Source of the DNA: a virus
Lineage: Duplodnaviria > Heunggongvirae > Uroviricota > Caudoviricetes
Virus record (IMG/VR): IMGVR_UViG_3300037512_000782
Span: 60,732 to 124,731 of that record
Length of the DNA: 64,000 nucleotides
Strand: one strand, 5' to 3'
Part shown: piece after piece, positions 4,242 to 61,515 of the stretch
How positions within the stretch are numbered: position 1 is the stretch's first letter
Layout of the letters: every line of letters begins with the position of its first letter
Translations under genes and position numbers: made by a program
The notes under the pieces: generated by a model
Database searches by the model: none
What the model was told of the DNA's origin: nothing
Seen by the model: only the letters and a program-made list of their open reading frames with translations

Positions 4242-5507
4242 TTAGTCTTCGCCGTTGACTCCCTTGCGCAAGCTTTCAGCCTTCGCAGCATCGGCGAGAT
4301 TCAAGTCTTCGATTGCTTCGTCGATTTCGGAATCTTCGACTTCTGGAGCATCGTTGTCTTCGGCAGAACCGAGTGAAGGCGGACGGAACTTGTATTCCTT
4401 CTTCACGTACTCGTTGATTTCTTCGAGGATAGTGCCGATGTATTCCTTGCGGTCAACCTTGCTGGCAAGGCAGACGATCCAGTCCTTCGGATCCTTCTTC
4501 TTGTCCATGATGACGTAGCAAGTCTTGCGAGTCTTCTGGCCGTTACCGTCCTTCGGCATCTTCTCAACGAGTTCTGGATACTTGGAAGCAGAGAACTCTT
4601 CGATGAGGCCAGCGTCGAGAGCGACGTTGTGCAAGCCGTAGAACTTGTTCAGACCAGTGTTGTAGTCAAGATAGAGCATGGCGGTCTTCCTGGGCTTCAC
4701 CATACGGCTCTTGAACACGGTGGCTTCAAGGATGATACCCTTGACTTCCTTGGTGTTGCGGTCAGGCACGTCGAGAGTCTTGCGCATCGTCAAGATGACG
4801 GAAGCGAAGTACTTGGCACCTTCACCGTTAGCGATGCGCTTCGGATCACCGTAGCCATCGGTAGCCATGTAAATGTGGTTGGTAATGAACATCGGAATGC
4901 CGAGGTTTCCGCAGCGGTTCGTGATGTTCGTGAACATGGCCTTGACCACCTTGGCCTTGGTCATGTCTTGCTTGAGTTCGCCCTTCGTGGCGTCGTTCGT
5001 AGTCTTCTTGGTAGACATACCGCCGAGAGAGTCGAGAACGAACGCAACCTTACGTTCATTCTTCATCTTCTTGCCCTTATCGGCTTCGAGAGTGTCAAGA
5101 AGTTCAGCAATAGACACAAACACGTCCTCGGCAGTCGTATGCTCTTGGACGAGCTTGAACTGGTTCGGATTGAAGCCGTTTTCTTCTATTAACTGGTCTT
5201 CATTGGTTTCGTGTTCGGTGTCGTAGTAGAAAATGTAGTAGCCCAAGTCCATCAAAGGCTTGATGAAGTTGTTCTTCATCATGTAGGACTTACCGGAGCC
5301 TTGTTCACCAGCGGCCATGAAGAATCTGTTGAGATGGAAGCCGCCGAAGATGTCGCCACATAGTAAGGCGTTCAGCATGTAGGAACCGGAATCGGCGTAG
5401 CCGTATTCTGGATGTTTGACGTTTGCGTCCGCATAACGGTCGCCCGTCTTGATTTTCTGGAAGAAGGAGAAATCGGGTTCAGCTGGGTTAGTTTTCTTTG
5501 TTGCCAT
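4242..5507 (-). CDS. uvsX: UvsX / RecA-like recombinase
   Basis: SGSYMLNALL, Walker A GEQGSGKS, YYDTE, VLDSLG, DMTKAK, ITNHIY, KSR. Confidence 0.93.
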   Translation of the reverse strand: MATKKTNPAEPDFSFFQKIKTGDRYADANVKHPEYGYADSGSYMLNALLCGDIFGGFHLNRFFMAAGEQGSGKSYMMKNNFIKPLMDLGYYIFYYDTEHETNEDQLIEENGFNPNQFKLVQEHTTAEDVFVSIAELLDTLEADKGKKMKNERKVAFVLDSLGGMSTKKTTNDATKGELKQDMTKAKVVKAMFTNITNRCGNLGIPMFITNHIYMATDGYGDPKRIANGEGAKYFASVILTMRKTLDVPDRNTKEVKGIILEATVFKSRMVKPRKTAMLYLDYNTGLNKFYGLHNVALDAGLIEEFSASKYPELVEKMPKDGNGQKTRKTCYVIMDKKKDPKDWIVCLASKVDRKEYIGTILEEINEYVKKEYKFRPPSLGSAEDNDAPEVEDSEIDEAIEDLNLADAAKAESLRKGVNGED

Positions 5508-5575
5508 ATAGCTATTCCTTATGAATAAGTGTTATTACAGTATGCCTAGAAGCGGCTTATTGGATAACAGGTGAA

Positions 5576-5604
5576 AATTTAGTTCAAATCAATTTGAATT
5601 CCAA
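5576..5604 (-). promoter_or_regulatory. sigma70-like promoter for uvsX-gp41
   Basis: TTGGAA-17 bp (starts TTCAAA)-TAAATT. Confidence 0.65.
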
Positions 5605-5610
5605 ACTGGC

Positions 5611-6543
5611 TCAAAACCGTAAATTTTGGGCATTTCCGGTTGGGAGCGCCAGTAAGTTTATACCTCCTTCCAGAGACTCCCACGCATCGGATAGGCTCAT
5701 AATGGGTGTCATGAACACATCCACCTTGTCGAACTTGACCTTCGTCCAAGGGAACTTCATGGTCTTGATTACCAGCGGTCGGCGTGTGAGTATAACGTAC
5801 GGATTGAAGTCGTTCAACTTCTTCGCGTCGTACGTGCCCTCGATATTCTGCAAAGTCAGCATCGCGACGTTGTTCACTACCCCGGTTAGCTTAACAATGG
5901 GGGCAGACTCCTTGAGTTCCACGAACGCCAGCGTCTTGTTCTTGCCAAGCGTCATGAACAATTCCTCGTACCGATGATCCTTTATTACGGACAAATACTG
6001 GCCGAGGTCGAAATAGCCCACCAGCTGGCGATGCTTAGGCATCTGGTAGCTGGTATAGACATACCTAGCGATAACTGGCTCATAGAGCTTACCGTTGTTA
6101 TCACCTAGATGCACCATCATATTGTAGATGCCCTTCAAGTCCTTTCGGCCATACTGGCGCAGCGAAAACGTACGTTTGGCAGAATCGAGTATGCGCAGAT
6201 TATGCTCCGCGCCCAGATAAAACCGAGACACAAACGGAAATCCGCTTATATTGATACGAGAACTAGCCGGAAACGTATTCAATGCGGTAACCAAGCCACT
6301 CGGCGTACAGTCGACAGCCTTCACATAGTTATTGACGACGTGGATATCGACAGTACGGCCATCCAGTCGTACCGACGGACGGCTGATACCGAACTCATTT
6401 ACATAGGGTGTATCGCTCTTGACAACGTAAGGCGCGAGCTGACCATTTTCAACCATGCCGAACTCGTCGGCTACTTCCATGTAGTCGGACAAGTAATTGT
6501 CAACATACACCACTTGTTTGGATCCGATCGTCTGTATGAACAT
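5611..6543 (-). CDS. hypothetical protein
   Basis: 310-aa ORF translationally coupled (TAATG) to the upstream gp25-domain gene. Confidence 0.7.
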   Translation of the reverse strand: MFIQTIGSKQVVYVDNYLSDYMEVADEFGMVENGQLAPYVVKSDTPYVNEFGISRPSVRLDGRTVDIHVVNNYVKAVDCTPSGLVTALNTFPASSRINISGFPFVSRFYLGAEHNLRILDSAKRTFSLRQYGRKDLKGIYNMMVHLGDNNGKLYEPVIARYVYTSYQMPKHRQLVGYFDLGQYLSVIKDHRYEELFMTLGKNKTLAFVELKESAPIVKLTGVVNNVAMLTLQNIEGTYDAKKLNDFNPYVILTRRPLVIKTMKFPWTKVKFDKVDVFMTPIMSLSDAWESLEGGINLLALPTGNAQNLRF

Positions 6544-8828
6544 TAGATCTTCCTACCACGGTTCTTGAATGGGAGCCGTATCATCTCGGTACGAGCCGAC
6601 GGCAGTACGACCGCTAGCAGCAAGTAGTACAAGTTCTCGCTATCGTCGAACTCGCAAGAACTCTGGTCGCCGTCGATAAAGACGCGAGGCTCGTACTCAT
6701 GAACCTTCTGGATACATTCTTGGATAAGAGTCAATCCATCATCTTGAGAGCCAAGCTTGAACAAGCGCTGTTCGATGCCAGTGCCGAAGTTCTGACTGAA
6801 CAAACGTTCACCTGGGTTCGTCAGCAAGATAGAGTAGACGTTCTGAATAAGGCTGGTCTCGTCAGTGACTTCGGTCATGTTGACGAAGCCCATGTCGCGG
6901 TTATACAAGGCAGTACGGCCAACCAAGTCTGGGTCAACAATTCCCGGCTTCAACTTCTTCGCCAGCGGAACGCTGCGCTGTACAGATGAATTGTCCACAT
7001 AGACATAGGCATTTTCATTGGTCAACGGAATATGCTCAACATCGCTGCGCTTACGGTAAACCATAACGCTCAATGAACCGCCTACATCGTCTGGAACGAC
7101 AACATCGAGATAAGTCGAATTGCCAGAAATAATCGGAACAAGCTTCGTACCGATCTCGACTTCATTAGCAAAGATCGACGTACCGAAATTATCGCTATCA
7201 GCGTATTTAGGAGTAATTCTCAATACTTGACCCGGTTCGGCAACTGACGAAGATAGCGTAATGTCAAACGGTTCTGGGTTCTCACTCGATTCGCCAGCCG
7301 TGAAGATGATATACGGCCTATTCTCGGTAACGGCGTTGTTAGTCGATGCGAATGTCACCGACGGTTCACCTTCGCCAATTATTCTCAACGCAATCGACGG
7401 CGTATAGGATGCGGTTCCAGACAACCACTCACGAACAATCACCGAATCCAGCGTAATGCCAACCGTCTTGTTGTAGCAATCTTCGGAAAGGTCTTCGCTG
7501 CTTGACAAAATGGCGGTATTATCCGGTCTCTTCAACGGATTCAGAATCTTGACACTACCAATCGGAATCTGCGTCACATGCTTGACCATTTCGTCATAAG
7601 ACATGTTGGAGTTCCATCCAGCAGTGTCCATCTGGTACACCATCACGATAGCCTCGCTGTAATTCATGTCTTCGACATACAGCTTCAATTCTGCAGTAGC
7701 ATCGTCCGCGCCGACAACCGAGTTCGGAGCAAACTGCATACAAACGATAGACTCGTGCTCACCACCAGCGCATACCAAGGTAGTCTGGTTTGTATGGTTC
7801 ACATCATCAGCATCATTCACGACATAGGTATCGACCGACGGATTAACCATTTCAGTCATTCGCAAATGGTCGCCCAGCAAGGCATTAGTAACCATAACGC
7901 CAGCGCTAGGAGCCTTACGCTTACGAGACGATACAAATATCGGCCAGTTCACCGGGATGCTCTTTGACGGAATTCTAGGACAATAGACCAAACGCGCCGT
8001 CGCCATAGAGTCTTCAAGAATCGCATCGACCTTCACGATAACACCATGAATGTCAAGTACACGACACATCACATTACCAATGCACAGCTGGTCATTAACT
8101 TGCAAAGAGGAGCTTAGTGCAATACATGAAAAGGCAGCAGTGCTATCACTTACTTTATTCAAAGTAACGTTACCGAAGTCGTAATAGCAGACTTCCCAAA
8201 CGGATGCCGTGTATCCGTCAGCAGATATCTCTTTAGAACCCTCGACGGTCGTATAATGTCCAATATCGTACTTGTATACCGTTCCAGACACCTTCGACAC
8301 GCAGTATGTTCCGCAAATCCTCAAATCGTCTGGGCCAAGGACATGCTTCGATGCAAGTTCGGCATTGCCGATAGTAACCGCCGTACCGTCCGCGATTTCG
8401 TCGGTATCCAGCTCAACAAATACCTCGTGGCTCTGAACTAGGATTCGTCTGACCGCGATTTCATACATCTTGCGTTCGACCAAGATGTTCATCGGATTAA
8501 CCGCGCTCATAATTGCGGATTCTGACGTTTCCGCAAAATTGCCGGAGAACCACCACATGTTTTCTCCGTTAGCTAGCGGTACAAGCAATTCCGTATTGAA
8601 CTTGTGAATATCAATACGAGGCGGCCTAAACTCGCACATCCAGTCGTCATACGCAGTACAAGGAGCATCGACGGTAAGGCCATAACCTTCCTCACCATTA
8701 TACTTCTGGCCGCTATTATACATCATGAAAAGTCGAGCACGATATTCAGACAGCTCATCGTCAGCGGTAAAGTTGACGGAGTATCCGACACGCTCATTCT
8801 GTGTTATTCTGCGTACATCCAACTGCAT
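6543..8828 (-). CDS. baseplate protein with C-terminal gp25/GPW domain and a long beta-rich N-terminal extension
   Basis: C-terminal LIQNVYSILLTNPGERLFSQNFGTGIEQRLF...YEPRV is the gp25 signature; upstream DTYV..ATAELKLYV..RPYI (DNRLRE-like) and IPT/TIG-like segments. Confidence 0.75.
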   Translation of the reverse strand: MQLDVRRITQNERVGYSVNFTADDELSEYRARLFMMYNSGQKYNGEEGYGLTVDAPCTAYDDWMCEFRPPRIDIHKFNTELLVPLANGENMWWFSGNFAETSESAIMSAVNPMNILVERKMYEIAVRRILVQSHEVFVELDTDEIADGTAVTIGNAELASKHVLGPDDLRICGTYCVSKVSGTVYKYDIGHYTTVEGSKEISADGYTASVWEVCYYDFGNVTLNKVSDSTAAFSCIALSSSLQVNDQLCIGNVMCRVLDIHGVIVKVDAILEDSMATARLVYCPRIPSKSIPVNWPIFVSSRKRKAPSAGVMVTNALLGDHLRMTEMVNPSVDTYVVNDADDVNHTNQTTLVCAGGEHESIVCMQFAPNSVVGADDATAELKLYVEDMNYSEAIVMVYQMDTAGWNSNMSYDEMVKHVTQIPIGSVKILNPLKRPDNTAILSSSEDLSEDCYNKTVGITLDSVIVREWLSGTASYTPSIALRIIGEGEPSVTFASTNNAVTENRPYIIFTAGESSENPEPFDITLSSSVAEPGQVLRITPKYADSDNFGTSIFANEVEIGTKLVPIISGNSTYLDVVVPDDVGGSLSVMVYRKRSDVEHIPLTNENAYVYVDNSSVQRSVPLAKKLKPGIVDPDLVGRTALYNRDMGFVNMTEVTDETSLIQNVYSILLTNPGERLFSQNFGTGIEQRLFKLGSQDDGLTLIQECIQKVHEYEPRVFIDGDQSSCEFDDSENLYYLLLAVVLPSARTEMIRLPFKNRGRKI

Positions 8829-20962: not shown

Positions 20963-21016
20963 AGTTTATCAATTTTCGCGAATAAACTACGATATTTTCA
21001 GCAAAACTGATAAACA
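20963..21016. promoter_or_regulatory. divergent putative late promoters
   Basis: AGTTTATC (minus, 20963-70), AATAAACT (20981-88) and GATAAACA (21009-16). Confidence 0.6.
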
Positions 21017-24688: not shown

Positions 24689-25666
24689 ATGGATAAGAAT
24701 GTACTCTTGAACTGCCTTTCAACTGGAAAGGCCCTAATCGAATCGAACGCAGCCTTCTTTGCGAAGAAGACGGACAAGAAGCGATTCGAACAAGGTAAGA
24801 AGCTGACAAGACAGTTCGTCGGTGTATCACGCGCACCAGATGGCAATGCCGTTATCGAATTCCAGGTTCCTTCTCGTAGCGAACCCGGTGTCATGCGTCA
24901 TTGCTTTATCGACGTGATACCCAAAGATACAAACTTGTTCACACTAGCCCAGACTACGAAGAGGCTCGCTGACCGCGTGAATGTCTTGAAGAACGCTGAC
25001 GTGCGTTGCTTCTGTTCGTGTCCAGACTTCAACTGGAACGGCATGAAGTACATGATGAAGCACAAGTACGACAGCATGTCTTCAGACCACCACGCCGACA
25101 ACGATCACGACGACCACGGTGAAGATATTGCACCTAAAGTAAGAAAGCCAGCACTTTGTTCGCACTTGGTCGCTGCACTCGGCGGTATCTTGACCAACGC
25201 CTCCGTAATCATGAAGCAAGTTCGTACGGCTCCGCCAATCGAAGAGCAGCCGCAAGAAGAACCGCAGCCTACCGAAGAACATCCGATCGTAGGTAAGGCC
25301 GACTCCGAAGAACAATCGAACAACGTAGCCGAAGAACACGAACAAGCTCGTAACGAAGCTAACGAAATGTTCACTACTGACGGCGGCACCATCAAGACCG
25401 AGGAAACACAGAAGGCGCTCGACGCGCTTGCAGACAACATCGAGCCGACCGCCGAAGGCGAGACTGACGATGAAGTTCCAGAAGTTCTCGACGACCCAGG
25501 ACTAGGTCTTGTAGGAAAAGCCGACTCCGAAGAAAAAGCAAACAAACTCGTCGACTATGACGAGCTTGCAGCAAATCCTATGTTCGATGTCCCAGTAGAT
25601 GACGAGGAAGAAGAAATCAGTGTCGATGACGAAGATGTCATCACCGAACCAATGAAACTCCCTTAA
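24689..25666 (+). CDS. SWIM-like zinc-finger protein with acidic tail
   Basis: CFCSCPDF...LCSHL (CxC...CxH). Confidence 0.7.
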   Translation: MDKNVLLNCLSTGKALIESNAAFFAKKTDKKRFEQGKKLTRQFVGVSRAPDGNAVIEFQVPSRSEPGVMRHCFIDVIPKDTNLFTLAQTTKRLADRVNVLKNADVRCFCSCPDFNWNGMKYMMKHKYDSMSSDHHADNDHDDHGEDIAPKVRKPALCSHLVAALGGILTNASVIMKQVRTAPPIEEQPQEEPQPTEEHPIVGKADSEEQSNNVAEEHEQARNEANEMFTTDGGTIKTEETQKALDALADNIEPTAEGETDDEVPEVLDDPGLGLVGKADSEEKANKLVDYDELAANPMFDVPVDDEEEEISVDDEDVITEPMKLP

Positions 25667-26163
25667 TTAGACCAGATAGGTTCAAGCGTCGCGACAGAAA
25701 TCTGATCGGACGTGTTATTCCATTTGTAGTTGTTGCCGACAACGATCATCAGTATATCGTGCAACACGGATCTCACCAGACCGTTCTTGACCGTCTGTAA
25801 AACAGTGTTGATGTACATCTTGTCACACTCTTCACGACTGTAGTCATTGAACCCGGTCTCCTCGTACAACGCGGCAAGCGCAAGAGTTACGCACGGATCC
25901 AACTTTATTCCGATCAGTCCCAGCAGATAGATAACAAACTTCGGCAGAGGATGCTTCGCGGCAAAGCCTTTCTTGATGGTAAGGCGACTGCGCACACTGG
26001 TAAAATCCATGCTCGTCATTTCCTCAATGTCATCATCGACGTCGCCGTTCAAGATAACAATGTCGGCTACAAGTTTGTCCTTCAACTTGCACACGCCATC
26101 TTTTTCGACGGCGGCATGCTTGTACTTGTCTGGAATAATAATGGTACGGATATACTGTGACAT
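25663..26163 (-). CDS. hypothetical protein
   Basis: 166-aa ORF with AGGTG RBS. Confidence 0.7.
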   Translation of the reverse strand: MSQYIRTIIIPDKYKHAAVEKDGVCKLKDKLVADIVILNGDVDDDIEEMTSMDFTSVRSRLTIKKGFAAKHPLPKFVIYLLGLIGIKLDPCVTLALAALYEETGFNDYSREECDKMYINTVLQTVKNGLVRSVLHDILMIVVGNNYKWNNTSDQISVATLEPIWSN

Positions 26164-26207: not shown

Positions 26208-27842
26208 TTAGGCGGCGTTGAAGTCAACTGGCTGGCACTGACGGCTTTCCATTTCGTCGATGAACAACTGATCCGGACGTTCCGGCAAGGTAGCCTCGTA
26301 CTCGTATTCGTACTCGATATCGGTGTGTGTAGGAATGTCTTGGTTGAGAAGTTCCTCATCCATGATGCAGCGAACATGATCGGCATACTGCTCCGGCACG
26401 ATAATGGAGTCATGCACCGTGCAGAAATGGCAACCGACTTCCTCGATGATACGAGGGCAGACTTGATCGAACACGAAGCTGCTCTCGATTTTCTGCATTT
26501 CATAAGCCAACGCGGCATGGCAATGTTCCTTCAGCGACCACATGCAGTTGTAGAGGTTGGGGAAGTGTTCACGCCAGCAACGCTGAACCGCACCACGGAT
26601 CGGCTCACGCTTGGTATCGAAGTACAGCGGAGAGAACAAGAAGGAAAGCAATCCCTTCTTTGCTTCGTCACGAGTCAGCTGCCTACCGATATCTTCGTCG
26701 GCACTGCATTCGCTCTGGAAGAATTCGTATATCTTGCCTTCCGCCACCAAGTTACGGTAACGGTCGAGCTCGGCTTCCATGCGGCCAAGGACGAGATCCT
26801 TGCGGCCAGCATTCCAGATCGGCTTGAAACGGAGGAACGTATCGCGGTTCTCGGTGAGGTCATTGCGATAGAAGTCGATATAACGACGGAACACGGCAAT
26901 GATGAAGGCCGCTTGAGAAGACTTGATATCGACTTCGGCAACCTTGTCTCCATCGCAGCGCAATGCGGCATGACGGATTTCCTTCTTCATGTTCGTCACG
27001 TTCGTATGGATACGGCCATACTTGTCGTGCTTCACATAAAGGTCTCCGTCTTCGTCAAGGAGGCCGTTGAAGCGCTCGATCTTGCAACGTTCAAGGTCGG
27101 CATTGTACGGAGCCATCTTGCCGTTCTCGACCATTTCATTCAAGGTAGCATCAGCCACATTCGCATCAATGGAGAAGTGGCTCAGCTCGTCATAGCAAAT
27201 CGCCACTACTGGATCTTCCATAGATACGCGCTTGCGTTCCTCGAAGGACTTCTGGATACGCTTCAAGACTACCGGAGAAGTGATCGTGTACTTGGACATC
27301 GTGCCGCGCACAACGACTTCGGTATTCTTGAGCTTCTTGTCGAGTCTGGTCTGCAGATAGGTAGCGTAGCTGTTCTGGTACGGAGCGCAAAGCCAGAAAG
27401 CCTTGCACTTTCCCTTACGGCTGGAGTCACCCTTGATGTAGCTCTGAGAACGGCCAATGAAGCCATTCTCGACCAAGGTGTTGATGGCAGTGATGTAGCC
27501 GTCACCGAGGAACTTGTGGAGCAAGGCAGCAGAAAGGTGGGTCTTCCAATACTTACGAGGAATCTTGGGCTGCACAACCATATTGGTCATGAGGTCACTA
27601 CGGAGATGGCTCGTAACCATGTAAAGGACGAGTGCCATCGTATCAAGTAAAGTCTTGTTTACAGGAGAATGTCCGTTCTTTGTCGTAAAATCGTGACAAA
27701 ATGACACAAAACCCTTGTAGAGCATAGACGGCAGTTCAATCTTGAACTCAGTCTTAGGCTTACGACGCTTGGTCTTCTTGGTTCGGTTAAGGGTTTCGTC
27801 AATCACGTCCATAAAGTTAACAAAACTTCCCAAGTCCGGCAA
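26208..27842 (-). CDS. family A (PolA/T7-type) nucleotide polymerase-like protein without exonuclease domains
   Basis: YGRIHTNVTN, motif A EVDIKSSQ, motif B TRDEAKKGLLSFLF, MQKIES, motif C TVHDSIIV in PolA order; start uncertain (TTG 27842 or ATG 27812). Confidence 0.65.
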   Translation of the reverse strand: MPDLGSFVNFMDVIDETLNRTKKTKRRKPKTEFKIELPSMLYKGFVSFCHDFTTKNGHSPVNKTLLDTMALVLYMVTSHLRSDLMTNMVVQPKIPRKYWKTHLSAALLHKFLGDGYITAINTLVENGFIGRSQSYIKGDSSRKGKCKAFWLCAPYQNSYATYLQTRLDKKLKNTEVVVRGTMSKYTITSPVVLKRIQKSFEERKRVSMEDPVVAICYDELSHFSIDANVADATLNEMVENGKMAPYNADLERCKIERFNGLLDEDGDLYVKHDKYGRIHTNVTNMKKEIRHAALRCDGDKVAEVDIKSSQAAFIIAVFRRYIDFYRNDLTENRDTFLRFKPIWNAGRKDLVLGRMEAELDRYRNLVAEGKIYEFFQSECSADEDIGRQLTRDEAKKGLLSFLFSPLYFDTKREPIRGAVQRCWREHFPNLYNCMWSLKEHCHAALAYEMQKIESSFVFDQVCPRIIEEVGCHFCTVHDSIIVPEQYADHVRCIMDEELLNQDIPTHTDIEYEYEYEATLPERPDQLFIDEMESRQCQPVDFNAA

Positions 27843-27930
27843 GTCTCCATTGCAGGATATTGGAGTAAATCAGACCAGCGGTGCTAGTCCGGTTTACTGC
27901 CGAGTTTATCGTTCAGTTATACGGAGTACA

Positions 27931-27959
27931 AAGGTAGACTAAACGAGTTTGAATTTCAA
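27931..27959 (-). promoter_or_regulatory. sigma70-like promoter for the PolA-like gene
   Basis: TTGAAA-17 bp (starts TTCAAA)-TACCTT. Confidence 0.6.
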
Positions 27960-28024
27960 GTTCGACCATCAGTCCTTGTCTCACCCGGCACCACCGACCA
28001 TGTTAATGTTTCGAAATCAATAAG

Positions 28025-28061
28025 TCTGAGTATATGGTTTAGTTTACATAATATACTCAGA
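28025..28061. repeat. 11-bp perfect inverted repeat in the AT-rich divergent intergenic region
   Basis: TCTGAGTATAT-15 nt-ATATACTCAGA. Confidence 0.75.
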
Positions 28062-28171
28062 AAAGGGGTCGAAAGTAAGGTATAAAAGTTCAACGAAGCA
28101 GCCAGAGTGCTGCAGTCTTGCCCTACGGACGCCCCATATAGATGTTTCGAAAAATGACTATTTAGGCTAAT

Positions 28172-28200
28172 TTGCAATTCAAATTGATAATGGCTATCTT
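28172..28200 (+). promoter_or_regulatory. sigma70-like promoter for the uvsW-rnh-gp46 operon
   Basis: TTGCAA-17 bp (starts TTCAAA)-TATCTT. Confidence 0.65.
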
Positions 28201-28208
28201 GTTCCATT

Positions 28209-28712
28209 ATGGCTTACACATCTTGTATAACAATCGAGTTACTATCAATGTTCCGCTGGAAGGAGACTGGGTGGAAGGCACCCGTGTCCTTGGTATCGCC
28301 GGATGTGACCATCCGTCTTGCAGCGCACGAGTCTTGCTCCAATAACAACTGGAAGCTTGACTTGGACGTGGAAAGTGTCGAGAACCATAATGAATGGGCC
28401 GACCCGTCCTTGCAAGACAAGATTGTTGCCGCCGTCATGAAGCGTTGCCAGCACGACGTCAAGGTCGTCCGCATCTTTGGCGCTTCGCTTCGCAATACCT
28501 ACATCAACGGTATGAAGCGTTCGAACATGTTCTTTCCGACCGACTTCCGTGTGAATTTCAACTACAAGTACAGATTCATCGTCGCGTTGGAAGGCGAGAC
28601 CTACGAAAAGCTTGACGGTATTTACTTGGTTCCGTCCTACATCCCGGCACCGCGAGATGGCTTTGACGCCGAGCAGTTCTACAAGTTGTGCTGTTACGAG
28701 AGATTTGAATAA
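28209..28712 (+). CDS. hypothetical protein
   Basis: 167-aa ORF coupled (TAATG) to uvsW. Confidence 0.7.
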   Translation: MAYTSCITIELLSMFRWKETGWKAPVSLVSPDVTIRLAAHESCSNNNWKLDLDVESVENHNEWADPSLQDKIVAAVMKRCQHDVKVVRIFGASLRNTYINGMKRSNMFFPTDFRVNFNYKYRFIVALEGETYEKLDGIYLVPSYIPAPRDGFDAEQFYKLCCYERFE

Positions 28713-30487
28713 TGGCCCAGCAACAGACAAATTTCGCACCGTCCGTCGTGCGCTTCGAGTACAATGACGCTATCCAGTGTCATGTAGCCATCGAATCCGA
28801 GGACAAGCGACTTGCCTACATGATTAACAGCTTCATATCGGCTGCCATGACGTTCTATGACAAGACGAAGTCGAAGACGTGGCAAGTGTCCGAAGGATTC
28901 AAGAGCGCATTCGTTACATTTTACGACCGTAAGTTCCAGTTACTACCGATCGGCTTAATACCGAGAGTCAGCCGTCTTGTCCATGGCCGTTTCGGTTCGA
29001 AGATCGAACTGACCAAGGATATCAACGACTTGTTCATTCCGCCTCGCGGAAAGCTGACTAGGAACGACGTCGTCGGTTTCGCCAATACGCTGAACTTGCA
29101 CAATCGTCTAACTGGCGAACCGATCATTCCGTACGAACATCAGTACAAGCTGGCCGAGCGAGCCATCAACGGACGCCGCATTTCGTTACTAGCTTGCACG
29201 AGCGCTGGCAAGTCTCTTGCCATGTGCATTATCGCGAGGTACTTAATATCTCGCGAGAACAAGAAGCTCTTGATCGTCGTGCCGTCCACCAACTTGGTCG
29301 AGCAGCTGTTCTCCGACTTCTACAACGACTATGGCTGGGAAGACGCTCGCCGTTATTGCACGTTGATTTACGCGGACTCCGATGACAAGTTGTCGAAATC
29401 ACAGAAGGAGAACTTGAAGAAGAACAACATTGGCGAAGAAGTCATGCTGAAGCAGATTACCATTTCGACGTGGCAGTCGCTCCAGAACAAGCCAGATTCC
29501 TTCTTCGAGTGCTTCACTGCGGTCATGGTCGACGAAGCCCACTCGACTCGCGGCGTCAAGTTACGAGATATCTTGGCCAAGTGCGTGAATGCCATCGACT
29601 TCAAGATTGGCGTGTCCGGTACTTTGCCGAGTGACGGTATCGACGCTGGCTACATCGAAAGTCAGCTTGGCCGCAAGGAAGACATCATCAGATTGAAGGA
29701 ACTCGTCGCACAAGGTATCCTTACCCCAGTGACTGTCCGTTCTATCTTGATTCCGTATCCTCCGCAGTTACGAAAGATGATCTGCCGCCAGACCTACGAT
29801 GACGAAGTCGCATTCTGCAGCTCCAACACGTCGCGCCAGGATATTGTCAAGCTGTTGATCGACGCTGGCAAGATTACGACCGAGCAGAACACGGTTATCT
29901 TGTTCAAGAATATCGATCCGCTTGAAATGATGCACGAGTTTCTTGCAGCGAACTATCCGCAGTTCACTTACCATATCATCAAGGGTGACGTGTCCGTGGA
30001 TGAACGCGAGGATATTCGTAAGTCGATCGAGTATTCGACTGGCCACATCATCTTGGCAACTTACGGCTGCATGAAGCAAGGCGTCAACATCAAGCTTCTG
30101 CACAACTTAATATTTGCCAACCCGGCGAAGTCTGTGTACATGGTCGTCCAGTCGATCGGTCGTATTGTGCGTCCGCACAAGGACAAGAAGATGGCCTATG
30201 TGTATGACTTGGTCGACGATGCGTCGTACGAGTATATCGGACGTTCCGGATATCCTATCGTGAAGACGAACTACATGGTCAAGCACTACGATATCCGTCG
30301 TTCCTACTATGACGACGACGAAATTCCGGTCGAGGAGATCAACTTCACTGGAATTTACGAAGCCAAGATTGACGAAAATGTTATAGCCGAGCGCAAGAAG
30401 AAGGCTGCCGACAAGGCGAAGGCCAAGGCCGAGAAGGCCGTCAGCAAGAGCAAGGCTAAAGTATTCAAGAACAAATTTTTCTTATAA
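28712..30487 (+). CDS. uvsW: UvsW-like superfamily 2 helicase
   Basis: PYEHQ, CTSAGKS, VVPSTNLVEQ, STWQS, VDEAH, GVSGT, QSIGR, YDLVDD. Confidence 0.92.
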   Translation: MAQQQTNFAPSVVRFEYNDAIQCHVAIESEDKRLAYMINSFISAAMTFYDKTKSKTWQVSEGFKSAFVTFYDRKFQLLPIGLIPRVSRLVHGRFGSKIELTKDINDLFIPPRGKLTRNDVVGFANTLNLHNRLTGEPIIPYEHQYKLAERAINGRRISLLACTSAGKSLAMCIIARYLISRENKKLLIVVPSTNLVEQLFSDFYNDYGWEDARRYCTLIYADSDDKLSKSQKENLKKNNIGEEVMLKQITISTWQSLQNKPDSFFECFTAVMVDEAHSTRGVKLRDILAKCVNAIDFKIGVSGTLPSDGIDAGYIESQLGRKEDIIRLKELVAQGILTPVTVRSILIPYPPQLRKMICRQTYDDEVAFCSSNTSRQDIVKLLIDAGKITTEQNTVILFKNIDPLEMMHEFLAANYPQFTYHIIKGDVSVDEREDIRKSIEYSTGHIILATYGCMKQGVNIKLLHNLIFANPAKSVYMVVQSIGRIVRPHKDKKMAYVYDLVDDASYEYIGRSGYPIVKTNYMVKHYDIRRSYYDDDEIPVEEINFTGIYEAKIDENVIAERKKKAADKAKAKAEKAVSKSKAKVFKNKFFL

Positions 30488-30496
30488 GGTTAATTT

Positions 30497-30958
30497 ATGC
30501 GAGGTACAATAACTTATTGGGATGGCATTCGTCGGTTCTTCGCCGAGCGCGGGTTTGACCGGGCCAAGTTGGACAGAAACTGCTTTGACGGTTTCAAGAT
30601 TGTCTCTGCCGATATTCACGAGCCGCTTGAAGGCTATGCGGTTTTCCGTGAATCTGCACCGGATATCTTTGCGCAGTTCGACCGTCTCGACTGTTCTGTA
30701 GACCGTCCGACGGATTACTACCGCGACTTCTTTATCGGTGAATGCAAGCGTCCGCGTGAGGCGCAGCAGTTGGTCGATGCTCTTTATGAAGTTGCCGCGA
30801 TGGATCCTCCAGAACCAGTATATGAATCCGCTGATGTCGTTCATACGGTTAGTTTGGAAGTCTTGAACGATATTGCTGCCATGAGTGGCAGTACACCAGC
30901 AATTAAAGGCGAACCGTTTGTCAATACCGATGGTGAGCTCGTTGTAGAACTGGCTTAG
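30497..30958 (+). CDS. hypothetical protein
   Basis: 153-aa ORF in operon, AAGG RBS. Confidence 0.7.
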   Translation: MRGTITYWDGIRRFFAERGFDRAKLDRNCFDGFKIVSADIHEPLEGYAVFRESAPDIFAQFDRLDCSVDRPTDYYRDFFIGECKRPREAQQLVDALYEVAAMDPPEPVYESADVVHTVSLEVLNDIAAMSGSTPAIKGEPFVNTDGELVVELA

Positions 30959-30966
30959 GAGTTATT

Positions 30967-32322
30967 ATGGAATTCAAGTCAAAGCCTCTCAAGAGTTATC
31001 CGTTCAAGAACAATCGCCTTCTCGTTATCGACTGGGCATCGCTTTCCTATCATCAGCTTTGGTCAATGAAGACGAAGTCCAGCAAGAAGCAGCTGGGCAG
31101 TGTGTTGCCGGAAGACGACGAAATGATCGTCTGGCGAGCAAAGATGTTCAACCGCATGCTGGACTACATCAGACTTTTCAATCCGATGGACATTATTCTC
31201 TGCCTTGAAGGCAAGAAGGCATGGCGCAAGCAAGTCGTCAAGGACTATTACACAAAGTATGCCGAAGTCTATTACGATAGCATCGGCTACTATGTCTGCA
31301 GCGACAATTATGCCTACCGTGTGACGAAATGCGGCGATACTTACGGCGTGGCCAAGATTTCTCCGAAGGAACGCCCGGTGTTCGAATCGTTGAAGCATCG
31401 TCCGCTCGGAAAGTTGCCTCAGCAGACCCAAGACATGCTTTGGGGAATCAAGACGCTCTCTGGAACTCCGGTGCTTCCGTCGTACAAGGGAAAGCGTGGC
31501 GCGTCTCCTTGGGAATTCTCGGTCGACAAGAAGTATTGGCAAGCCTACAAGGATGAATACGCAATGGAACTTGCTCCGTTCTTCCGCGCAAAGGCTGTCA
31601 AGTGCGACATTGCCGAAGGCGACGACATGATCTATGCCGCCGTCAAGAAGTACAGCGGCGACTACGACGATGTCATCGTCATCACGCGAGACTCCGATAT
31701 GTCCCAGATCGACGTGAAGAACTTGAAGATTTTCAACCACACGTCCGAGAATTTCGTCGAATGTCTCTATCCGCAGAAGTACCTTGACGCCAAGGTTCTA
31801 TCTGGAGATACCTCTGACAATATCCGTGGCATGGCCTATGTCGATGCGAAGACTGGCGAGTACAAGCCGACCAAGGCTAACGCCGTCTCCGAAAAGGAAG
31901 CCGTGACCTTGCTTGAAAACTGCCCGAACATCTATGCTGTAGCCCAGGCTAATGGCTGGGGCGAACAGTACATGAGGAACCGTACATTGATCGACTTGTC
32001 GATGGTTCCTCGTAACGTGTCCGAGGCTATCGACGTCGTGATGGATAAGCCAGCCCCAGAACTGGCTATCGACTGGAACAAGACCAATGAATGGGGCATC
32101 CCAGAAAGCAAGGTGGACTACTATCGCACTCTGCAGCAGTTCGGTTTCTTCGCCGTACTCAAGCGCGAAAACGCCAACCCAGAATCGTTCAAGGGCGAAC
32201 AGCTCGTCCAGAAGGAAGCCGACATGAACCAGAAGCTGCTGGATGATATGTCTACTGGTCTGGATTTCGAGTCGGTTGAAGGAATCTTCGACGGCCCGGC
32301 GTTTGACATCGGAATGCTTTAA
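30967..32322 (+). CDS. rnh: T4 RNase H-like 5'-3' exonuclease (FEN family)
   Basis: LLVIDW, KAWRK, YKGKR, EGDDMI, TRDSDMSQ, GDTSDNI, RNRTLIDL. Confidence 0.88.
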   Translation: MEFKSKPLKSYPFKNNRLLVIDWASLSYHQLWSMKTKSSKKQLGSVLPEDDEMIVWRAKMFNRMLDYIRLFNPMDIILCLEGKKAWRKQVVKDYYTKYAEVYYDSIGYYVCSDNYAYRVTKCGDTYGVAKISPKERPVFESLKHRPLGKLPQQTQDMLWGIKTLSGTPVLPSYKGKRGASPWEFSVDKKYWQAYKDEYAMELAPFFRAKAVKCDIAEGDDMIYAAVKKYSGDYDDVIVITRDSDMSQIDVKNLKIFNHTSENFVECLYPQKYLDAKVLSGDTSDNIRGMAYVDAKTGEYKPTKANAVSEKEAVTLLENCPNIYAVAQANGWGEQYMRNRTLIDLSMVPRNVSEAIDVVMDKPAPELAIDWNKTNEWGIPESKVDYYRTLQQFGFFAVLKRENANPESFKGEQLVQKEADMNQKLLDDMSTGLDFESVEGIFDGPAFDIGML

Positions 32323-59907: not shown

Positions 59908-61515
59908 ATGACACCATATTATTACGTTCGTGAAGTTGAAAAGATTATGATTGCGTTGATGGACGTATTCAATAATCTGCGTGCCAAGAAATACAAGGAC
60001 ATCTCGCGTACGGCGTCCGACCGTACAGTTGCTGTCCCTATCACGACCCACAGCAGCGCGAACTTCGCAAACTTGGTCGCTTCTACGCAGTCGACGCAAG
60101 AACCGATGCCAGTGCCTATTCTTGGCTTCCGTTATACCGGAAACTCGCATGACCAAGCCAACATGGTGCAGCCGTGCTATGCGCGTGAAATCTACTCGCC
60201 CACGATACAGAAGTTCATCCGTGACATACAGCCGACGCCGCAAGTATTCAAGTTCGAAATGACATTGCTCTGCAACGACATGTCCGACTATCTGCAGATA
60301 AAGGAAAACATCGAAGCCTATTTCAACACGTACCGCACAGTCCGTATCAAGGAGTTCGACTTCATCCCGGAAATAGAGCGACCGATTCCGTTCTCGGTCA
60401 CTTGGACGGATAGTCTCGACGACGAGAAGTCATCGGACAGCAAGGAATACCAGTATTACAAGACGACCTACACCATCGAGGCCCATGGCGTCTATCACCG
60501 TAAGTACGAAATTCCGGCGATCATCAAGTACGCCGAAATGAATTTCAACATCAACAACGAACTTATCGACTCGTTGCAAGTGTTCGTGTATCCAGACGAA
60601 ATCGCGCAGCAGAAGAAGCACTTGTGGGAAACCGTCGAGCCTTCGATTCGCGAGGGCTGGTCGCTGCTCAAGACGTTCACTAGGACGCTTGTTCGCAAGA
60701 CGGACGAGGACGGCGACGAATACTGGAAGGATGAGACTCGCAAGAGCTACGACTTGACCTATCACGACGAGAGTGACATTACGAAGCGCAACAAGGTAGG
60801 AAATGTCGTAACTGGCTACAACCCTATTCTGAAGGGTTACAAGCGTGACGATAATGGCAACATCATCAAGGACAAGGACGGCGACCCGATTCCTATTTAC
60901 GACTGGGAAGATATCGTCGTCGGCGACGTGAACCGTCCGCCGGAAGTCCCTTCATTCGACTTGATCCACTTGAACTTTGACGAGGATACTTCTCTGGAGC
61001 ACGACTTCAGCGGACTCAACCGTGACTTCGTCGCGATATCCAGCGAGAAGCGTGAGTTTGTACCAGACATGGCTCCAGGCAACGGCAGCTATGCACCGGA
61101 CGGATACGCTTCCGAGAATACGGACTGGTCGCAGATTCTTAACTGGTTCGGCGACAACAAGGAAGGAAAGATCGAATCTTCCTACACCTTCAAGGCCACG
61201 CTGCAGTTCAAGCACCCAGATGTCGATACGGTGTTCCAGTATCTATACAATCCGAAGGACGTCACTCTGTCCGACGGAACGGTCATCCCGGCGGAAACCG
61301 TTTGGTTCGACTGGGGCATACAAGATCACCGACTCTATTTCACATATCACACATCGTCGCAGTATCACCGCTTCGTGAGCGCAAAGACCGACTTCGACGA
61401 CAAGACAATTTATTCGATCTACTTTGTCCTTTATAACGAAGGACAGAACGGCGCGTTCGGTATTCGTACGAACTTCTCCGACACGATGATCGCTCTGGAA
61501 ACGAAGGAAGTATAA
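59908..61515 (+). CDS. gp15: tail sheath stabiliser/terminator (T4 gp15-like) with C-terminal extension
   Basis: YYVREVEKIMIALMDVFNNL, VAVPI, IQPTPQVFKFEM, QIKENIEAYF; about 300 extra C-terminal residues. Confidence 0.7.
   Translation: MTPYYYVREVEKIMIALMDVFNNLRAKKYKDISRTASDRTVAVPITTHSSANFANLVASTQSTQEPMPVPILGFRYTGNSHDQANMVQPCYAREIYSPTIQKFIRDIQPTPQVFKFEMTLLCNDMSDYLQIKENIEAYFNTYRTVRIKEFDFIPEIERPIPFSVTWTDSLDDEKSSDSKEYQYYKTTYTIEAHGVYHRKYEIPAIIKYAEMNFNINNELIDSLQVFVYPDEIAQQKKHLWETVEPSIREGWSLLKTFTRTLVRKTDEDGDEYWKDETRKSYDLTYHDESDITKRNKVGNVVTGYNPILKGYKRDDNGNIIKDKDGDPIPIYDWEDIVVGDVNRPPEVPSFDLIHLNFDEDTSLEHDFSGLNRDFVAISSEKREFVPDMAPGNGSYAPDGYASENTDWSQILNWFGDNKEGKIESSYTFKATLQFKHPDVDTVFQYLYNPKDVTLSDGTVIPAETVWFDWGIQDHRLYFTYHTSSQYHRFVSAKTDFDDKTIYSIYFVLYNEGQNGAFGIRTNFSDTMIALETKEV

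Follow-up and report, generated by a model that had tools for sequence, protein, structure and literature searches.

Why should a phage that replicates with a family-B DNA polymerase also carry a gene for what looks like a minimal polymerase of family A? The question is raised by a gene on the minus strand, at 26208..27842, in a 64,000-nucleotide stretch of a tailed phage genome (Caudoviricetes; IMG/VR record IMGVR_UViG_3300037512_000782, positions 60,732 to 124,731), here called the window. A reading of the letters alone (the original prediction) had taken its product, a protein of 544 amino acids (aa), for an accessory family-A-like enzyme in a T4-like phage. We hold with high confidence that the product belongs to the PolA superfamily as a polymerase that looks active, lacks an exonuclease and has an N-terminus of winged-helix type, that its family is a sister clade of the phage polymerases named divPolA2, and that it is accessory to a complete T4-type replisome.

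The gene was delimited from the list of open reading frames (ORFs) and its translation. A word-indexed search gave 92 homologs, with identity down to 23%, and with an exhaustive search (E<=1e-3) the number of cluster representatives was 2,385, the clusters being formed at the 50% identity level. Thus, 26208..27842 encodes a real and widespread protein. Its start is uncertain, the candidates being the listed TTG at 27842, which has GGAG just 2 nt upstream, TTG at 27833 and ATG at 27812; residues 1-23 are poorly modelled, and certain homologs start at the position of Met11. Among GenBank phages, family members are found only in six metagenomic huge phages of 600-735 kb and in one Pinkberry virus. 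Outside these, the family is present in metagenomes and in assemblies of Bacteroidota, Planctomycetota and Ignavibacteriales, mainly the first two. Copies 99% identical to the 544-aa protein occur in rumen bins of metagenome-assembled genomes, on contigs binned under both Fibrobacter and Prevotella. A search of the phage's own genome found no paralog, and megablast of the gene region against GenBank phages gave no match.

Scans of the 544-aa protein with Pfam (E up to 1), PHROG, NCBIfam and PADLOC returned nothing meaningful. When 107 distant family members were scanned singly with Pfam, there was no match on the catalytic part and only sporadic N-terminal matches to HTH, ANT or Rep. The family profile had zero matches among all PDB sequences at E up to 10. 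PF00476 (DNA_pol_A) found nothing in the phage genome, whereas it gave matches in control genomes; PF00940 (RNA_pol) had no match at E<=1 in the protein or the genome, and the control genomes contain no member of it either. Alignment with hhalign of the family profile to single sequences of T7 RNA polymerase (RNAP), T7 DNA polymerase (DNAP) and N4 RNAPII covered motif B or C only and was non-significant.

Kinship is seen at the level of fold. An AlphaFold2 model made from 50 homologs (predicted local distance difference test (pLDDT) 83.9, predicted template modelling score (pTM) 0.71) has three parts, all encoded on the minus strand: an N-terminal winged-helix-type domain (residues 24-205, 27228..27773), a catalytic core of short thumb, palm and fingers (residues 206-503, 26334..27227) and an acidic C-terminal tail of low confidence (residues 504-544, 26211..26333, pLDDT 41-64). 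In an exhaustive structural search, residues ~200-503 match the palm and fingers of the Pol I/T7-RNAP superfamily, with scores of 12.3 for Klenow (1d9d; 243 residues, 3.7 A) and for yeast mitochondrial RNAP (mtRNAP, 6ymv; 254, 4.2 A), 11.8 for T7 DNAP (246, 3.7 A), 11.5 for Pol theta (232, 3.7 A), 9.8 for T7 RNAP (374, 10.3 A) and 8.3 for N4 RNAPII (201, 6.8 A). A Foldseek comparison with the PDB, the check proposed alongside the original prediction, returned only family-A polymerases or mtRNAP in its top 50, so that the palm and fingers expected of the enzyme are present in the model. There is no exonuclease domain, as had been supposed from the missing motifs. Residues 24-205 are instead of winged-helix type: the structural neighbours listed for them are nearly all winged-helix domains, including ORC/Cdc6 and the plasmid RepA initiator, and at the fold level the model agrees with what had been a guess about the N-terminus.

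Residue conservation was counted over 126 diverse family members. Eight residues are conserved in all of them (R277, D305, Y372, K395, Q450, E453, H477 and D478), followed by Q310 (125, 99%), R290 (123, 98%), T475 (98%), H279 (117, 93%), S479 (113, 90%), P311 (90%) and R391 (108). Every motif that had been listed in PolA order falls on conserved columns: GRIHT-N on G276, R277, H279, T280 and N281; DIKSSQ on D305, S309 and Q310; GKIY on Y372; R-x3-K on R391 and K395, with F403 replacing the Tyr of the YG pair; FP on P428; MQ on Q450; and VHDS on H477, D478 and S479. The two catalytic aspartates, whose loss among homologs would have told against a polymerase, are thus both invariant.

Along the gene (minus strand throughout), the DxxGR hairpin and duplex-binding track (DKYGRIHTNVTNMKKEIR, D273-R290) lies at 26973..27026 and parallels TGRLSSTDPNLQNIPVR of Pol I, its GR...TNLKK..R part corresponding to Pol I GRLSSTDPNLQNIPVR. 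Motif A (EVDIKSSQAAF, 26904..26936) carries the catalytic D305 and, in the register given by hhalign to divPolA2, places Q310 at the steric-gate position. Motif B, the O-helix (R391-x3-K395-x3-L399-x3-F403-S), is at 26631..26672, a helix with the motif L-Q-x-x-E-S that includes Q450 and E453 at 26481..26498, and motif C (TVHDSI, with the catalytic D478) at 26403..26420. The 544-aa protein therefore combines the palm/fingers fold with the motif A and C aspartates and the R-x3-K O-helix of family A. By secondary structure, motifs and fold it also has the minimal core described for TV-Pol, a family considered below, namely a short helical thumb, an Arg hairpin, a two-Asp palm and R-x3-K fingers. 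Fold and residue conservation together support the earlier assignment to a minimal polymerase of the family-A/T7-RNAP superfamily.

The closest relatives appear to be divPolA2, which are extra phage polymerases found alongside a regular PolB (Yutin et al. 2024, Virol J 21:200 / bioRxiv 2024.04.26.591309, PMC11188092). They were represented by AUR84708 (Vibrio phage 1.063.O) and four relatives, from ICP1, PH357, Aeromonas 2L372D and Barba30A. Profile-profile alignment strongly connects the two groups (hhalign 97.7%, E 2.3e-12, over 183 columns that start at the GR hairpin and end past motif C), and Foldseek relates the 544-aa protein to models from Barba31A and Aeromonas 4L372D (E ~1e-7). HMMER links the two families in neither direction; the hidden Markov model (HMM) of the 544-aa family found nothing in MG592441 at E up to 10 and scored -1.0 bits against AUR84708. 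Membership of divPolA2 at ordinary search depth was thus rejected by HMMER. Because profile-profile comparison connects the groups while HMMER does not, the family is placed, by these alignments, as a sister clade of divPolA2 rather than as a member.

The two clades have in common a spacing of 28 residues between the GR arginine and the Asp of motif A (Pol I has 37 and T7 RNAP 112), the lack of an exonuclease domain, an additional N-terminal globular domain and a regular PolB in the same genome. However, the N-terminal domains fail to align, hhalign covering the catalytic core only, and divPolA2 has nothing that corresponds to the invariant L-Q-x-x-E-S motif. Their distributions also differ. 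Tblastn with AUR84708 matched 266 GenBank phage records (Vibrio, Rheinheimera and Aeromonas phages), and divPolA2 is also found in ICP1, barbaviruses and Aeromonas phages, whereas the 544-aa family is absent from cultured GenBank phages. The divPolA2 gene of Vibrio cholerae phage ICP1 (e.g. MW794167 57667-58971) is annotated merely as hypothetical.

The window belongs to the 348-kb record of a giant rumen phage, whose completeness is put at 91%. The phage genome has a T4-like core, with a gp32-like protein that binds single-stranded DNA (SSB), a gp41/DnaB-like helicase, UvsX, gp46/SbcC, a portal and a major head protein; the SSB, helicase and UvsX are all encoded inside the window, in agreement with the gp32/gp41 context that had been noted. 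A separate gp43-type enzyme, which had been called for as a check, is present as a family-B DNA polymerase at G000:C1:48.8-51.7 kb, ~10 kb upstream of the window. Outside the window there are also a Zn-ribbon + Toprim (DnaG-type) primase and two Sigma70_r2 proteins above the Pfam cut-off (G000:C1:15183-15350(-) and 198329-198520(+)). No RNAP beta subunit, and no multisubunit RNAP, was found in the phage genome, and the phage probably redirects the host RNA polymerase.

The replisome is complete without the 544-aa polymerase, whose gene is therefore accessory, as the original prediction had it. A role as replicase of the phage is ruled out by PolB, and a role as its missing (lagging-strand) primase is rejected given the DnaG-type primase. 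The idea of a general phage transcriptase is weakened by the two sigma factors and the lack of a long conserved promoter, together with the absence of a multisubunit RNAP. Origin priming, short RNA/DNA synthesis and counter-defence, the roles offered with the original prediction, are candidates; since the phage has its own DnaG-type primase and two sigma factors, it lacks no function that the enzyme would have to supply.

Whether the product would be DNA or RNA was addressed by comparing active sites, with reference motifs read from the T7, N4 and E. coli records (Pol I, DYSQIE and VHDE; T7 DNAP, DASGLE and VHDE; T7 RNAP, DGSCSG and IHDS; N4 RNAPII, DATSSG). At the steric gate, five residues after the motif-A Asp (D+5), Pol I and T7 DNAP have Glu and T7 RNAP and N4 RNAPII have Gly. 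The 544-aa family has a near-invariant Gln, of the same shape as the Glu gate, whereas the five divPolA2 members have E, E, E, H and W. Four residues after the O-helix Lys (K+4, position 399) the family has F, Y or L, in line with F762 of Pol I and Y526 of T7 DNAP, whereas the RNAPs have Met and divPolA2 has M, M, F, A and G. At K+8 (position 403) Phe predominates (94 members, 75%) over Tyr (29, 23%), while Pol I, T7 DNAP and the RNAPs all have Tyr and divPolA2 is variable. T7 RNAP selects ribose via the Tyr hydroxyl at K+8, and Y639F abolishes this selection. The position of Pol I Gln849 and T7 RNAP His784 is occupied by the invariant Q450, an assignment made by motif order and not by alignment, and has no counterpart in divPolA2. 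The GR motif is preceded by Asp (DxxGR) in the family, as in the RNAPs, but by Thr (TxxGR) in Pol I, and is not conserved in divPolA2 in this respect. Motif C is HDS in the family and in T7 RNAP, HDC in N4, HDE in Pol I and T7 DNAP, and FDE, YDE, HDD, HDS and HDS in divPolA2. As divPolA2 has HDS too, this form of motif C is not specific to RNAPs.

The family thus has neither the Glu gate with HDE motif C of family A nor the Gly at D+5 with Tyr at K+8 that forms the ribose-accepting site of T7-like RNAPs. With Pol I Klenow and T7 gp5 it shares the order of motifs A, B and C, the GR...N-L-x-x...R track, an aromatic residue at the F762 position and, with Pol I, the Gln assigned to Q849. It is unlike Klenow and gp5 in having no 3'-5' exonuclease or vestige of one, a truncated thumb, an N-terminus of winged-helix type and no PF00476 match, and unlike Pol I in the replacement of the steric-gate Glu by Gln and of HDE by HDS. 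With N4 RNAPII and T7-like RNAPs it shares the Asp of DxxGR and a T-V-H-D-[S/C] motif C, and N4 RNAPII (gp15/gp16, PDB 6dt7) is the best HMMER match among the reference enzymes. It differs from T7-like RNAPs in lacking RNAP N-terminal or promoter-recognition elements and a PF00940 match, and from N4 RNAPII and T7 RNAP at D+5, K+4 and K+8. On balance, the pocket seems closed to a 2'-OH and more like that of a DNA polymerase, and use of deoxynucleoside triphosphates (dNTPs) is favoured.

Small polymerases of this general type have been described from mobile elements. TV-Pol is a minimal PolA-like family of 400-600 aa for which prim-pol activity was predicted; it has an optional N-terminal helical domain that is sometimes a separate gene, and comes from viruses and from integrase-, resolvase- or transposase-bearing elements of Bacteroidetes, Planctomycetes and others (Iyer, Abhiman and Aravind 2008, Biol Direct 3:39, PMC2579912). 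CCPol of SCCmec, with its partner MP, prefers dNTPs and primes de novo, and is the sole assayed member of the minimal PolA-type group formed by TV-Pol, CCPol and divPolA1/2 (Bebel et al. 2020, eLife 9:e55478, PMC7581432). The 544-aa family resembles TV-Pol in its short thumb, Arg hairpin, two-Asp palm and R-x3-K fingers, in a length of 400-600 aa without a nuclease, in an N-terminal globular domain that may be a separate adjacent gene, and in being found both in viruses and in Bacteroidetes and Planctomycetes elements that carry an integrase. The TV-Pol of Ma-LMM01 (BAF36121), which lies beside IS605-type transposases, has the same motif order and the LQRIE motif (LLQRIEV there). However, hhalign of the family with the Ma-LMM01 TV-Pol group falls short of significance (3%, E 0.013, N-terminal region only), and membership of TV-Pol is unproven. 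A D5-like helicase, with which TV-Pol can be associated, was not seen here, the phage neighbour being UvsW. From CCPol the 544-aa protein differs in that the Pol I steric-gate Glu and the exonuclease-domain remnants of that enzyme, and the OB-fold protein MP that CCPol requires, were not seen for it.

Two cellular loci of the family are of separate interest. At a locus beside dnaA in Segetibacter aerophilus (L042, 5284-8623), genes for a NUMOD4/HNH homing endonuclease and a tyrosine integrase come after that of a family member, as if the polymerase were carried on a small integrative element. In Rufibacter latericius (L018), the family is split over two overlapping ORFs, 5208-5879 and 5872-6921, that correspond to HMM positions 9-178 and 179-433; the protein may naturally consist of two subunits there, or the split may be a frameshift artefact.

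In the window, the polymerase gene stands divergently to a plus-strand block (28209..32322) that comprises a 167-aa ORF, UvsW (28712-30487), a 153-aa ORF and a T4 RNase H/FEN-like exonuclease (30967-32322). UvsW was identified by PDB 2oca (E 4.9e-47) and RNase H by PDB 1tfr (E 2.4e-5) and phrog_107. In T4, UvsW and RNase H act on RNA-DNA hybrids. The divergent layout is kept in three other contexts: a related 486-kb phage contig (L006), L013 and GCA_016648615. Identity to L006 is 47% for the polymerase and 70% for UvsW, and to L013 it is 34% and 48%, so by these values the polymerase gene evolves faster than UvsW. In L006 an endonuclease V gene (4974-5714) lies between the uvsW block and the polymerase-like gene. 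Downstream of the polymerase gene, and in the same direction, there is a 166-aa ORF (25663..26163, minus strand), which is conserved in the same place in L006 (32% identity, E 4e-31). Its product had no Pfam or PHROG match, and no OB or SSB fold was detected in it; by analogy with the MP of CCPol, it could be a partner subunit.

The divergent genes are separated by a 366-bp intergenic gap (27843..28208). It contains a copy of the word GATAAACT, discussed below, an 11-bp inverted repeat (28025-28061) and two plus-strand copies of ATGTTTCGAAA, which includes the palindrome TTTCGAAA. These copies, at 28006-28016 and 28142-28152, are 136 bp apart, flank the inverted repeat and are the only ones in the 348-kb genome; ATGTTTCGAAA is not conserved in L006. 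The pair could, judging from its arrangement, be an operator or an origin-like site.

The polymerase gene had also been credited with two promoters, one of sigma70 type and one late. A consensus scan finds no sigma70 promoter directly upstream (4 sites in the region against 3.2 expected, which is chance level), and nowhere in the window does the T4 late motif TATAAATA occur. The site at 27903-27910 that had been read as the late motif is a minus-strand copy (27910-27903) of a genuine promoter-like word of the phage, GATAAACT (consensus aaCTGATAAACTgc); this copy is degenerate, departing from the consensus flanks (cGATAAACTcg) 60-90 nt before the polymerase start, and the claim of a dual promoter is weak. 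GATAAACT is the most intergenic-enriched word, with 38 copies in the 348-kb genome against ~11 expected. About 27 copies are intergenic and precede a start codon by 17-29 nt, in many cases that of a large gene; copies in the window include those at 20963, 23077, 36307, 41015, 44507, 53098 and 59846/59875. It is probably a short late or middle promoter of the phage's own, read by one of its two sigma factors, which suffice to explain it. The Bacteroidota -7 motif TAnnTTTG is not enriched (18 found, 27 expected). Elsewhere in the intergenic regions of the genome, GC-rich words such as CGGGGCTGCCTCGC and GCGAGGCAGCCCCG have ~15-17 occurrences each and resemble a terminator hairpin in shared use. 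AACCAAGGAG, a Shine-Dalgarno context, is also frequent there, from which it follows that initiation in the host is Shine-Dalgarno-led.

What the polymerase does can be proposed only with even confidence: we infer that it is an accessory, template-dependent, dNTP-using DNA polymerase without proofreading, which would carry out short-patch synthesis in a recombination or primer-processing pathway and possibly priming. The minimal thumb/palm/fingers core (residues ~206-503) would be held on DNA, or on a partner protein, by the winged-helix-type domain fused to its N-terminus. At primer-template junctions supplied by the adjoining recombination and primer-removal machinery (UvsW and the T4-type RNase H), it would synthesize DNA in short stretches. 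Gap filling, D-loop extension and synthesis across damage are candidate tasks, and de novo priming may be added by comparison with TV-Pol and CCPol-MP. Several observations weigh against this proposal. The register of the steric gate rests on profile alignment and spacing and not on residue-level superposition; DxxGR has the RNAP-like Asp in place of Thr, and motif C has HDS in place of HDE; N4 RNAPII has the top HMMER score among the reference enzymes, at 16.8 bits; and mtRNAP equals Klenow in structural score. As to the pathway, gene neighbourhood in a T4-like phage is a weak guide, and the members in cellular genomes sit in mobile elements that have no uvsW or rnh.

Some of these same observations would fit a minimal single-subunit RNAP working in the manner of N4 RNAPII, which would make particular transcripts, or an origin RNA primer or R-loop that the adjoining UvsW (by R-loop unwinding) and RNase H later remove. 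The same possibility was raised for divPolA2 (PMC11188092). The HMMER ranking, the Asp of DxxGR, the resemblance of motif C to the IHDS of T7 RNAP and the action of both neighbours on RNA-DNA hybrids in T4 are all on its side. RNA synthesis is nevertheless unlikely, given a bulky Gln where both RNAPs have Gly, Phe as the dominant residue where the ribose-sensing Tyr belongs, and Q450 at the position that motif order assigns to His784. Furthermore, neither a promoter-specificity loop nor the N-terminal domain of an RNAP would fit into 544 aa, PF00940 has no match, and the repeated word is a short one, with no sign of a long conserved promoter, in a phage that has two sigma factors. A function other than templated polymerization in vivo, such as a terminal transferase, a nucleotide signal or counter-defence, or a merely selfish passenger, would suit the faster evolution of the gene relative to UvsW and the frequency of the family in mobile elements and variable neighbourhoods, in which divPolA2 is likewise found (PMC11188092). 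This is very improbable, since the residues that contact duplex and template are conserved as a complete set (the GR hairpin, R290, the R and K of the O-helix, and Q450), the place beside uvsW is retained across phage lineages, and no PADLOC or defence-family match of note was found.

Priming is given a larger part if the protein is a site-specific primase-polymerase or initiator, whose winged-helix domain would bind a DNA site (e.g. the gap repeats) while the core starts a strand de novo. This would provide the phage, and the mobile elements that carry relatives, with an origin-specific start independent of DnaG. CCPol-MP, also of minimal PolA type, primes with dNTPs (PMC7581432), and TV-Pols are predicted prim-pols (PMC2579912). 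The occurrence of the family in integrase-bearing islands of Bacteroidota is consistent with such a role, as are an N-terminal domain that may have an adjacent gene of its own, a feature also reported for TV-Pols, and winged-helix neighbours that include ORC/Cdc6 and the plasmid RepA initiator. Beside the gene itself, both genomic copies of ATGTTTCGAAA lie in the gap, and the conserved small downstream ORF is a possible partner. We nonetheless consider this explanation doubtful: the profile match to the bona fide TV-Pol of Ma-LMM01 is non-significant, the gap repeats are unconserved in L006, no OB or SSB fold was detected for the downstream ORF, and the phage already has a primase, while T4-type phages can also initiate replication by recombination. 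The proposal that a PolA-derived, winged-helix-guided initiator acts at a particular site, for instance the ATGTTTCGAAA pair and hairpin in the gap, laying the first DNA or RNA primer for origin firing with UvsW and RNase H as the off-switch, is distinctly unlikely. If true, it would amount to a third priming route besides DnaG and AEP (archaeo-eukaryotic primase), across thousands of phage and mobile-element lineages.

Enzymes of this kind are known already by computation, from TV-Pol in 2008 and divPolA in 2024, and the 544-aa family is a further, unnamed variant. In phages and mobile elements a hidden layer of polymerases is coming to light, namely minimal PolA-type enzymes that lack proofreading (TV-Pol, CCPol, divPolA1/2), and CCPol-MP, once assayed, proved to be a new kind of primase. 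To this layer the family brings 2,385 clusters that are invisible to Pfam, PHROGs and NCBIfam, with a sharp invariant signature and a winged-helix fusion. At the residue that selects the sugar it has Gln, as opposed to the Glu of DNA polymerases and the Gly of RNA polymerases, which makes it well suited for testing how the choice of sugar evolved in the superfamily, and the divPolA2 gene of ICP1 offers a tractable system for the function of the wider polymerase group. If the 544-aa protein is a repair or gap-filling DNA polymerase, as preferred here, thousands of hypothetical proteins would acquire a name, and the replication/recombination module of T4-like jumbo phages would gain a new component.

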